Source of the DNA: Escherichia coli O157:H7
GTDB taxonomy: Bacteria; Pseudomonadota; Gammaproteobacteria; Enterobacterales; Enterobacteriaceae
Strand: one strand, 5' to 3'
Assembly (NCBI RefSeq): GCF_013167455.1
Contig: NZ_CP038328.1
Length of the DNA stretch: 64,000 nucleotides
A program made the position numbers. Of this stretch, positions 53,801-56,800 are shown one piece after another; position 1 is the stretch's first letter, and every line of letters starts with the position of its first letter.

Positions 53801-56800
53801 GGTCGTGCGCTGGCAGGGGCAAGTGGTGACCGGGAAACGCAAATATTTTGTACGAACCTGATGGCGGAATTGGTGTCCATCGCAGGTGAATACTGGCTGA
53901 GTGATCAAATCCCAGCAGAATTTTATGGCAAAGCGGCGCGACTGCAGTTAGTCGAAAACGCTTTGACCGTTCAACCGTTAAATTGATCCCTTTTTAACAA
54001 GGAATTTCTATGGCACGCATTATTGTTGTTACTTCGGGCAAAGGGGGTGTTGGTAAGACAACCTCCAGCGCGGCCATCGCCACTGGTTTGGCCCAGAAGG
54101 GAAAGAAAACTGTCGTGATAGATTTTGATATCGGCCTGCGTAATCTCGACCTGATTATGGGTTGTGAACGCCGGGTCGTTTACGATTTCGTCAACGTCAT
54201 TCAGGGCGATGCAACGCTAAATCAGGCGTTAATTAAAGATAAGCGTACTGAAAATCTCTATATTCTGCCGGCATCGCAAACACGCGATAAAGATGCCCTC
54301 ACCCGTGAAGGGGTCGCTAAAGTTCTTGATGATCTGAAAGCGATGGATTTTGAATTTATCGTTTGTGACTCCCCGGCAGGGATTGAAACCGGTGCGTTAA
54401 TGGCACTCTATTTTGCAGACGAAGCCATTATTACCACCAACCCGGAAGTCTCCTCAGTACGCGACTCTGACCGTATTTTAGGCATTCTGGCGTCAAAATC
54501 ACGCCGCGCAGAAAATGGCGAAGAGCCTATTAAAGAGCACCTGCTGTTAACGCGCTATAACCCAGGCCGCGTAAGCAGAGGTGACATGCTGAGCATGGAA
54601 GATGTGCTGGAGATCCTGCGCATCAAACTCGTCGGCGTGATCCCAGAGGATCAATCAGTATTGCGCGCCTCTAACCAGGGTGAACCGGTCATTCTCGACA
54701 TTAACGCCGATGCGGGTAAAGCCTACGCAGATACCGTAGAACGTCTGTTGGGAGAAGAACGTCCTTTCCGCTTCATTGAAGAAGAGAAGAAAGGCTTCCT
54801 CAAACGCTTGTTCGGAGGATAAGTTATGGCATTACTCGATTTCTTTCTCTCGCGGAAGAAAAATACAGCCAACATTGCAAAAGAACGGCTGCAGATTATT
54901 GTTGCTGAACGCCGTCGCAGCGATGCAGAACCGCATTATCTGCCGCAGTTGCGTAAAGATATTCTTGAGGTCATTTGTAAATACGTACAAATTGATCCTG
55001 AGATGGTAACCGTACAGCTTGAGCAAAAAGATGGCGATATTTCTATTCTTGAGCTGAACGTGACCTTACCGGAAGCAGAAGAGCTGAAATAATCCCGCTG
55101 TAAAAGCGCATTTATCTTCAAGGCAGAGTTATCTCTGCCTTGAGTTTTTCATCCCTCTCATCCACGTTGTGGTAAAGCGGCGAGTATTCTTGCTGATACT
55201 CCTCATTGCTATTTCCACCTCCCCCTTTACACCTTAAGGCTGTTCCCACGCACAAAACAAAATATTTATGCCTGGTTGAGTAAATAACCTTATTGTTAGT
55301 GTTGATATACTGGGAGATGATAACCCCGCAATTTCATTATTCATTGTTCTCCCATAGGATGAGGTTTCCCGCCGTAACTGGCGGGCTTTTTTTACCCCAG
55401 AATTTTCTCTTTTAACATCCTGTAAACGAAAACTGCGCCGAAGCGCAGTTTAATCGTTGATGGTCAGAACGACCAGTTCACACCAGCCACCGCGTTCCAC
55501 GGGGATTCCATACCAGCACCGTTGCTATACCCCACCCCAAGATGCCCGCTTAACGTACTGCTGAATGAGGCTTTAATACCTGCCTGGTATATTCCACGTC
55601 TGCCCGACAAATCATTGACGAAATTACCGTCACTATTCACTTTCACCCGGTTATCATCGACAAATTCTTTGCGCACAGCCGCCTTCAGCCACGGCTCAAC
55701 TTCCATACCGTTCCCCAGACGCATGTTGTAACTCAGCGTTGCACCCAGTTCACGATATATACTGCGGGTATCGACTGATTTCGATTCCATGCCATTGGAT
55801 AAATGATATTCGGGGTTATCAGCGGTGAACCCCGTTAACGAGGCATACGGCGTCAGGTTCCAGTTACCATCGGTAAATCGCATCCCGGTTTCAATGTGAC
55901 CGCCCAGCCCGTTGCTATGGTAACTGCCATTGGCGGCTCCACCGCTGCTCATTTTACCGGCTACGTTACTTTCAAAACGGTTCAGCTTCACGACACCGTC
56001 CAGATAGAAACCACTTTCATGTTCCCAACTGGCATAGCCGCCCAGAGAATAACTGTCCACACTGCCATGTCCTCCACGATCAAAACCGATATGTGAATGG
56101 GAATAACCCATAAAAGCGCCCAGCGTCGCAATCCCCTCAGGAATATCATTACGGCTGTCGATCCCCACTGTCATTCCGGTCAGCGTCTGCTCAAACCCGG
56201 CACCCGCATTTATCAACATATGGGCTTTAAACTTTCAGGACGTTCCGAGCGGGACAATCAAGGCAGACCCTACCCTCTATTACATCTTTATAACGCAATG
56301 TGACATGATAATTTTAGGAGAATTACATCATGGATTTTTTTGGCTGAAAGCGACAATGTAAGAACAACTCTGGCCGCTATCTGGGTTTCTCATTTGGTAC
56401 TCGCTGGCAAAGGTAAGAGCAAGACAATCACCGGCTTGTAAATGATGAGTCTGATGATTGACTCGAAAATCAAGGCTGCCGCTTAACATCCATAGAGTTT
56501 GTCCAGAAAGATGCTCATTTGCAGAGGCAGGGATAGTCAATTGCCCCATAGGGGGGATTTCAACTTTTATTAGTTCCGGACATGCACCCGCTGGGGACAA
56601 AGACCAGCGGGTAATGCCTGTTTCTTCATCAATCCAATGTTGTTGCTGGTCAGCCAAAAGTACAAGTGAATTCTGTTGCATCTCAAGCTCTGCAAAAAGC
56701 TTTGATAGCGTAATATTCAGTGCATTAGCTAACCGACTAAGTATTGTTGCACTGGGGCTTGAAGTGCCTCGTTCAACTTTGCTGATCATCGCCTGACTGA

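Follow-up and report, generated by a model that had tools for sequence, protein, structure and literature searches.

Why does the translocator domain of an autotransporter stand alone beside minE, at the edge of a foreign island, and can it still do anything? The question is raised by a 64,000-nucleotide stretch of an Escherichia coli O157:H7-type chromosome (RefSeq assembly GCF_013167455.1, contig NZ_CP038328.1), called the window below, in which the first-pass annotation noted this orphan barrel together with a passenger-only autotransporter fragment at 17.8 kb and read the two as independent truncations of paralogues that could nevertheless drive inversion of the block between them. We conclude, with a probability of roughly 0.85, that a lineage-specific deletion left the orphan barrel behind as a non-functional stump, and that it is neither the product of an inversion nor a stand-alone gene.

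A truncated adhesin at the ycgI locus

The stump lies in a minus-strand open reading frame (ORF; 55464..56219) of 251 codons that terminates in VNWSF. Its sole Pfam match is PF03797 (Autotransporter beta-domain), with E=1.7e-47 over profile positions 18-254 of 255. The match is well outside what chance would give and agrees with the description of the stump as a C-terminal translocator domain. The same description had counted all 251 codons as autotransporter sequence, but the homology ends at 56209, which leaves 247 native codons; the four at the start (MLIN, the ATG at 56219-56217 included) come from the DNA on the island, or acetyltransferase, side, so that the product begins MLIN and continues with the native AGAGFEQ. 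Likewise, the stump is on the minus strand 371 bp from minE, as had been stated, but minE itself lies on the plus strand with minC and minD (53276..55092), and the two genes are convergent.

The origin of the stump is indicated by E. coli O55:H7 CB9615, a representative of the recognised progenitor lineage of O157:H7 (PMC9413875), which carries an intact autotransporter gene of 1092 codons beside minE. Window positions 54826-56209 match CB9615 at 99.93% DNA identity, with one mismatch in 1384 bp, in an alignment that runs unbroken from minE through the stump and then ends. The break corresponds to residue 846, the stump representing residues 846-1092 of the CB9615 protein. According to Pfam, that protein contains AIDA repeats, a Pertactin domain at residues 641-763 and a beta-domain at 831-1070; the break is therefore inside the beta-domain. 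In strain ETEC4068, a full-length autotransporter of 1154 residues occupies this position, followed by ymgJ-ymgI-ymgG-ymgD-ycgH-ymgF-pdeG, and its residues 904-1154 are 95.6% identical to the stump. In addition to this close match to the C-terminus of the full-length genes at the locus in CB9615 and ETEC4068, the stump shares their convergent arrangement with minE and the same 3' intergenic region. Judged by alignment and gene order, the stump is a remnant of the AIDA-type YpjA/EhaD paralogue at the K-12 ycgI locus.

The ycgI pseudogene of K-12 and B strains is found at the orthologous locus beside minE and derives from the same ancestral gene, of which it too retains the C-terminal barrel remnant only. 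However, it arose by a separate internal deletion of 2,963 bp that left the last 345 bp, kept the ymgJ-to-ycgH neighbours and involved neither an insertion sequence (IS) nor a prophage. Because the deletions in O157 and in K-12/B differ, the same adhesin gene has been inactivated at least twice, in different ways. The K-12/B deletion begins 29 bp upstream of the start codon and ends 345 bp short of the stop (16211..19173 on the CB9615 reverse complement; 6365..6708 in the B-strain locus extract), and this shorter allele is apparently the one present in most E. coli, as judged from evenly spaced sample rows and not from a count.

The stump is an ordinary pseudogene remnant and had already been annotated as such. 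In E. coli FDAARGOS_293 (NZ_CP022050.2), our comparison strain and the genome that matches the window best, with 100% identity over 55100-56400, the Prokaryotic Genome Annotation Pipeline (PGAP) marks 55464..56210 as pseudo, 'missing N-terminus', under the name 'autotransporter outer membrane beta-barrel domain-containing protein, partial'. In O157:H7 Sakai, the stump is pseudogene ECs_1667, 'ypjA, adhesin autotransporter'. ECs_1667 agrees with the window's stump in locus, in the break within the gene and in neighbours, with minE to one side and ECs_1664, ompT and the prophage Sp8 to the other. It differs in that an IS629/IS1203 element (ECs_1665/1666) is retained between the stump and a remnant of an acetyltransferase gene, along with 6-9 bp more of the adhesin gene, whereas the window has an IS-less scar at CAT.

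IS629 alleles and the loss of 14.5 kb

Among the genomes in which the junction was compared, 127 bear IS629 and 148 do not. In the former, which include 86-24, Sakai and strain 8368, a 1310-bp IS629/IS1203 lies exactly between the stump and the acetyltransferase remnant, flanked on the left by ...CATCAGTGG (given as ...GCATCAGTGG in the full description of the junction) and on the right by TTTATCAAC..., with no microhomology. No target duplication was seen around the element when the flanks were read in the IS-bearing alleles. These alleles contain the motif CAGTGG, plus a TGA overlapping the end of the IS, which corresponds to CB9615 gene sequence and is missing from all scars. Since they thus keep 6-9 bp of ancestral gene sequence, the IS-bearing allele is the ancestral one within O157 and predates those without the element.

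Three types account for the IS-less genomes, except for some 19 that are untyped. The window type, present in 42 genomes, reads GCAT/TTATC and is joined at a 3-nt microhomology, the CAT common to both parents. In a second type (23 genomes), the last 3 nt of the IS are kept, giving GCAT+TCA+TTTATC with a 1-nt microhomology (T). The third (64 genomes) reads GCATCA/ACATATGG, with a 4-nt microhomology (ATCA). The latter two differ from the window type by +4 and -4 nt, respectively; therefore, the borrowed ATG of the 251-codon ORF is in frame only in the window allele. Two matches at 97.5% identity (H102 and H103) were at first considered divergent non-O157 strains, an assignment we rejected, as they are O157-type genomes that differ only by the +4 or -4 nt scar indel.

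We considered whether the IS-less window junction could be the older state, with IS629 inserted into it later in other strains, as overlapping BLAST coordinates had suggested. IS629 is highly mobile in O157 and the element is missing from the site in 148 genomes, but an insertion cannot restore bases, and the 6-9 bp (CAGTGG, with or without TGA) that IS-bearing alleles share with O55:H7 are absent from every IS-less allele. The lack of a target-site duplication and the existence of three different IS-less junctions also speak against a later insertion, which we regard as very improbable and dropped after reading the junction base by base.

The three scars do not seem to share one origin. The window-type scar is found among genomes that carry a deletion between ycgV and dhaR (described below), a deletion also present in the IS-bearing Sakai and 86-24, while ycgV and dhaR are intact in the strains representing the other two scars. 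This distribution indicates that the window scar arose separately from the others. A candidate agent for these events is IEE, which promotes IS629 excision, has microhomology-mediated end-joining activity, generates deletions that range in size between a few nucleotides and over 40 kb, and co-occurs with IS629 in enterohaemorrhagic E. coli (PMC9943667); the promotion of IS629 excision by IEE is credited to Kusumoto 2011, as cited in Calvo 2023 (PMC9943667). The parallels with the O157 junction are the loss of IS629 from a fixed site, small flanking deletions, microhomologies of 1-4 nt and the occurrence of several O157:H7 alleles. The difference is that here the process is read from natural alleles only, with which a contribution of IEE would be consistent; the iee gene itself is absent from the 64-kb window. 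We propose, as a tentative reading to which we give slightly less than even odds, that the junction at 56207-56209 belongs, as one allele, to a single-site series (an ancestral IS629 and at least three microhomology scars) recording repeated IEE-driven excision during O157:H7 diversification, and that the founding deletion was a defined, possibly phenotypically relevant step from O55:H7 to O157:H7.

What preceded the scars can be reconstructed from the island side. In FDAARGOS_293, the foreign DNA (~46.5 kb) starts at icd, passes through int, xis and an entire lambdoid prophage into cargo genes and reaches up to the junction, the cargo comprising catalase, ferritin-like genes, a methyltransferase, ISEc8, a hydrolase, ompT, a helix-turn-helix (HTH) regulator and the acetyltransferase remnant. 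Read outwards from the stump, ISEc8 comes after the alpha/beta hydrolase. In Sakai, most of this island is labelled prophage Sp8, and the order is Sp8, ompT, ECs_1664, IS1203/IS629, ECs_1667 and minE. The ~100 bp between the stump and the island, previously taken for unrelated sequence, are in fact the island's own, being largely the C-terminal remnant of the acetyltransferase gene. In strain VG38-53E1, this gene is intact (145 aa) and adjoins an icd' attR remnant, beyond which lie ymgL, ycgX, bluR, bluF and ymg genes. In CB9615, icd is without a prophage and the order is icd-iraM-ycgX-bluR-bluF-ycgZ-ymgA-ariR-ymgC-pdeG-ymgF-ycgH-ymgD-ymgG-ymgI-ymgJ-adhesin-minE. Relative to CB9615, O157:H7 is missing 14,539 bp of backbone, with iraM, ycgX, bluR, bluF, ycgZ, ymgA, ariR, ymgC, pdeG, ymgF, ycgH, ymgD, ymgG, ymgI, ymgJ and 845 codons of the adhesin. 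Taken together, the comparisons with CB9615 and VG38-53E1 indicate that O157 lost this backbone segment, the attR end of Sp8 and the first ~115 codons of the acetyltransferase gene.

On this evidence the junction was formed by deletion, within a cargo gene, and is no integration site. That the stump abuts horizontally acquired DNA could point to direct truncation by site-specific integration of the island, with the junction as its att site. However, the integrase end of the prophage is at icd, 46 kb away, the junction falls within a truncated cargo gene of which 30 of 145 codons are left, and the arrangement in VG38-53E1 indicates that attR and the 14.5 kb of backbone were deleted after the prophage had entered; we consider integration at this point highly improbable. 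With attR gone, Sp8 and its cargo (ompT, the hydrolase and catalase) are probably locked into the chromosome. The integrase gene of Sp8 is frameshifted in FDAARGOS_293. As for the lost backbone, bluF is frameshifted (locus extract 17534..18741) and ycgH has an internal stop (22871..25513) in CB9615, which indicates that decay had already set in within part of the block before its deletion in O157.

Table 1. Coordinates in the window of the stump, its junction and the surrounding features.
Feature	Position	Strand	Basis
Autotransporter beta-domain pseudogene; last 247 native codons and stop of a YpjA/EhaD-like adhesin (Sakai ECs_1667; K-12 ycgI locus)	55464..56210	-	Pfam, PGAP, Sakai annotation, CB9615 alignment
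Deletion/excision junction; 3 nt (CAT) common to both parents, IS629-less scar	56207..56209		Comparison with IS629-bearing alleles and CB9615
Fortuitous ATG of the 251-codon ORF, in acetyltransferase-side DNA; in frame only in the window scar allele	56217..56219	-	Base-level reading, allele comparison
30 C-terminal codons of the 145-aa GNAT acetyltransferase gene; outermost cargo of the icd-integrated lambdoid prophage (Sakai Sp8 region)	56211..56303 (93 bp)	+	PGAP partial 'acetyltransferase'; intact in VG38-53E1
minE	54826..55092	+	ORF; annotated minE in the 100%-identical FDAARGOS_293 locus
HTH (XRE) and cupin regulator; island cargo (Sakai ECs_1664), upstream of the stump on the same strand	56328..56912	-	Pfam HTH_3 E=5.6e-17; annotation (Cupin_2 sub-threshold, 21.0 bits against a gathering cut-off of 27.2)
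ompT (omptin protease); island cargo	57411..58364	+	Pfam Omptin E=3.7e-130; annotation
Alpha/beta hydrolase; island cargo	58551..60035	+	Pfam Abhydrolase_1 E=3.1e-33; annotation
ycgV 5' fragment; codons 1-543 of 961, break within the Pertactin domain, without beta-domain	17783..19413	+	100% to intact YcgV of O157:H7 ECP17-46 and O55:H7
dhaR 5' remnant; first ~40 codons	19414..19533	-	19413/19414 is the blunt junction of the 3,154-bp ycgV-dhaR deletion

Coding capacity and homologous partners of the stump

Type Va autotransporters combine signal peptide, passenger and translocator in one chain and require Sec export (PMC9289746). The native sequence of the stump, which begins only at residue 846 of 1092, contains no signal peptide. 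PF03797 is found without the AIDA repeats and Pertactin domain of the CB9615 passenger, and the beta-domain is incomplete and has no linker, the profile match beginning at position 18 and the break at residue 846 against a domain start at 831. Since signal peptide, passenger and linker are absent and the beta-domain has lost its first ~15 residues, we infer that whatever the 251-codon ORF encodes can neither be exported nor serve as a translocator.

In this respect, it is worth considering whether the ORF might encode a working stand-alone outer-membrane barrel or a domesticated translocator. The frame is open, has an ATG, spans nearly the whole beta-domain and has a regulator gene upstream of it on the same strand. 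However, the ATG is supplied by junction DNA and is usable in one scar allele only; a simple consensus scan revealed no promoter in the 108 bp upstream of the ORF, and reading the bases before the ATG revealed no convincing Shine-Dalgarno sequence. The open frame is accounted for by the youth of the deletion, given the single mismatch to O55:H7, and does not call for selection. Together with the missing export signal, linker and first ~15 residues of the domain, and with the Sec dependence of type Va biogenesis, these observations leave a functional barrel with very little credence.

The actual homologous counterpart of the stump is its paralogue ypjA/EhaD, which encodes an AIDA-I-type, biofilm-associated type Va autotransporter. 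K-12 YpjA shares 82% identity with the min-locus protein of CB9615 across the C-terminal ~990 aa and 95.2% with the 251-aa barrel ORF of the window, and both genes have the same small 120-bp ORF upstream. Nevertheless, ypjA/EhaD is a gene in its own right, intact (1526-1528 aa) and located ~1.8 Mb off next to another island, and the stump is not ypjA itself. In O157:H7 SS17, ypjA/EhaD is intact (NZ_CP008805.1 3556383..3560969; locus extract 2501..7087), and its 3' 756 bp are 98.0% identical to window positions 55454-56209, with exact runs of up to 138 bp. By matched strands in one genome, PNUSAE145743, the stump and ypjA copies are inverted and ~1.83 Mb apart. The extra BLAST places of the stump in some O157 genomes are explained by matches to the ypjA/EhaD barrel; FDAARGOS_293, unlike other O157 genomes, gives a single place and may be without the ypjA barrel. 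The identity between the stump and ypjA in the barrel is far above that in the passenger, which suggests past gene conversion between the paralogues.

The passenger-only fragment at 17.8 kb is present as reported, ~36 kb from the stump on the opposite strand, and has a history of its own. It is the 5' part of ycgV, and directly beyond its break the sequence enters dhaR at codon ~40 of this oppositely oriented gene, after which dhaK, dhaL and dhaM keep their native order. Compared with O157:H7 ECP17-46, the deletion responsible is blunt, measures 3,154 bp and shows neither IS nor microhomology; it took away residues 544-961 of YcgV and spared only ~40 codons of dhaR, whose product activates the neighbouring dhaKLM operon. 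Of 5,426 complete genomes, 138 have its junction (19413/19414), Sakai, EDL933 and 86-24 among them; it is absent from O55:H7 CB9615 and from some O157:H7 strains, a distribution that makes it a sub-lineage marker. In the O157-type strain OkiPb01687 (NZ_AP042532.1 1621960..1622437), a further deletion fuses a ycgR remnant to a dhaK remnant and removes ymgE, an iron-uptake cluster, treA, dhaM and dhaL. Deletions confined to particular lineages seem to arise readily throughout the min-to-ychF interval.

The two fragments are thus independent truncations of two paralogues, as the first-pass annotation had supposed: the stump is residues 846-1092 of the YpjA-like protein, the other piece YcgV 1-543, and each has its own junction (56209/56210 and 19413/19414). 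The further proposal, of a homologous inverted pair that could promote inversion, fails, since the domains they represent do not overlap and blastn (word size 7) gives no common match of more than 22 bp (best match 19 bp at 89%); at the protein level, blastp returned E=0.41. Being parts of different paralogues without shared DNA homology, the two fragments cannot, on these alignments, act as recombination partners. Nor are they contiguous halves of one gene, the finding that had been set beforehand as evidence for an inversion, because 543 and 247 residues together make neither gene and the breaks abut dhaR in one case and the prophage acetyltransferase in the other. Although one fragment is N-terminal, the other C-terminal and the two lie on opposite strands, an inversion, whether by splitting one gene or by flipping the 36-kb block between a homologous pair, has practically no chance of being correct, given that the barrel shares 95-96% identity with YpjA-type proteins but only 28% with YcgV's own barrel, that the other piece matches YcgV at 100% and continues into dhaR in native order with dhaKLM, that the pth-ychF-ycgV...dha...min gene order is the same as in O55:H7 CB9615, and that both junctions are collinear, on the same relative strand and 34-37 kb apart in the seven O157 genomes with both coordinates among the matches listed. 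Protein and DNA alignments, separate deletion junctions and outgroup collinearity all led us to rule it out.

The window does contain a genuine inverted repeat elsewhere, in the form of two complete 1310-bp IS629 copies (32768..34077 and 37796..39105). Their transposase ORFs, 33145..34035 on the plus strand and 37838..38725 on the minus strand, place them in opposite orientation on either side of ~3.7 kb around cvrA/ldcA, and they could invert this intervening segment. Other O157 genomes hold none or one of these two copies, as judged from spacing differences of 1.3-2.6 kb.

Proposed history and its consequences

Our comparisons support the following sequence of events for a stump formed by deletion. 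An O55:H7-like ancestor carried the intact 1092-aa AIDA-type autotransporter, the YpjA/EhaD paralogue at the ycgI locus, convergent with minE. Comparison among strains indicates that a lambdoid prophage (Sakai Sp8) then entered icd in the O157:H7 lineage. An IS629-bounded deletion, whose structure is visible in the IS-bearing alleles, next joined adhesin codon 846 to acetyltransferase codon ~115, with the loss of 14.5 kb of backbone and attR; recombination between two IS629 copies, or an IS-adjacent deletion, could have produced it. Finally, the sub-lineage of the window would have lost the 1310-bp IS629 with 6-7 flanking bases by end joining at CAT, a step that leaves its trace in the scar series and for which the literature points to IEE. 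The ycgV fragment at 17.8 kb is the product of the separate, later ycgV-dhaR deletion.

Several points weigh against parts of this account. We found no intermediate genome with the prophage, an intact adhesin and the IS, and the route of the IS629-bounded deletion is not reconstructable. The scars could partly be sequential, since a loss of 4 nt turns the window type into the GCATCA/ACAT type; it is the independence of the window scar only that the data support, through one linked marker, the ycgV deletion. The suggested role of IEE draws on the literature and on natural alleles. Read-through transcription from ECs_1664, upstream of the stump on the same strand, is possible, and its product would be cytoplasmic and non-exportable.

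Literature searches on ycgI, on IS629 at minE and on ycgH in O55 and O157 yielded no account of this specific site, the sole related mention being YcgI modelled as a broken barrel. What our analysis adds to the existing annotation is a reconstruction, from a prophage at icd through a ~15-kb IS629-bounded deletion to IS629 excision scars, and the rejection of the inversion idea. The autotransporter halves that look complementary are two unrelated, already annotated pseudogenes with no inversion potential, and ypjA/EhaD, rather than ycgV, is the gene to watch for conversion or rearrangement with the stump.

Relative to O55:H7, the deletion removes the bluRF-ymg-pdeG regulatory block and two adhesin genes. 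If our tentative reading of the junction series holds, the founding IS629-bounded deletion would have taken these two adhesin genes, the BluR/BluF-Ymg-PdeG module related to biofilms and cyclic di-GMP, and the attR of Sp8 in the passage from O55:H7 to O157:H7, and the series would be usable to mark lineages and to follow end joining by IEE in vivo. The site itself illustrates how IS629 makes large deletions and afterwards vanishes, and what appears as an island junction in O157 may be the scar of an insertion sequence rather than a site of integration.

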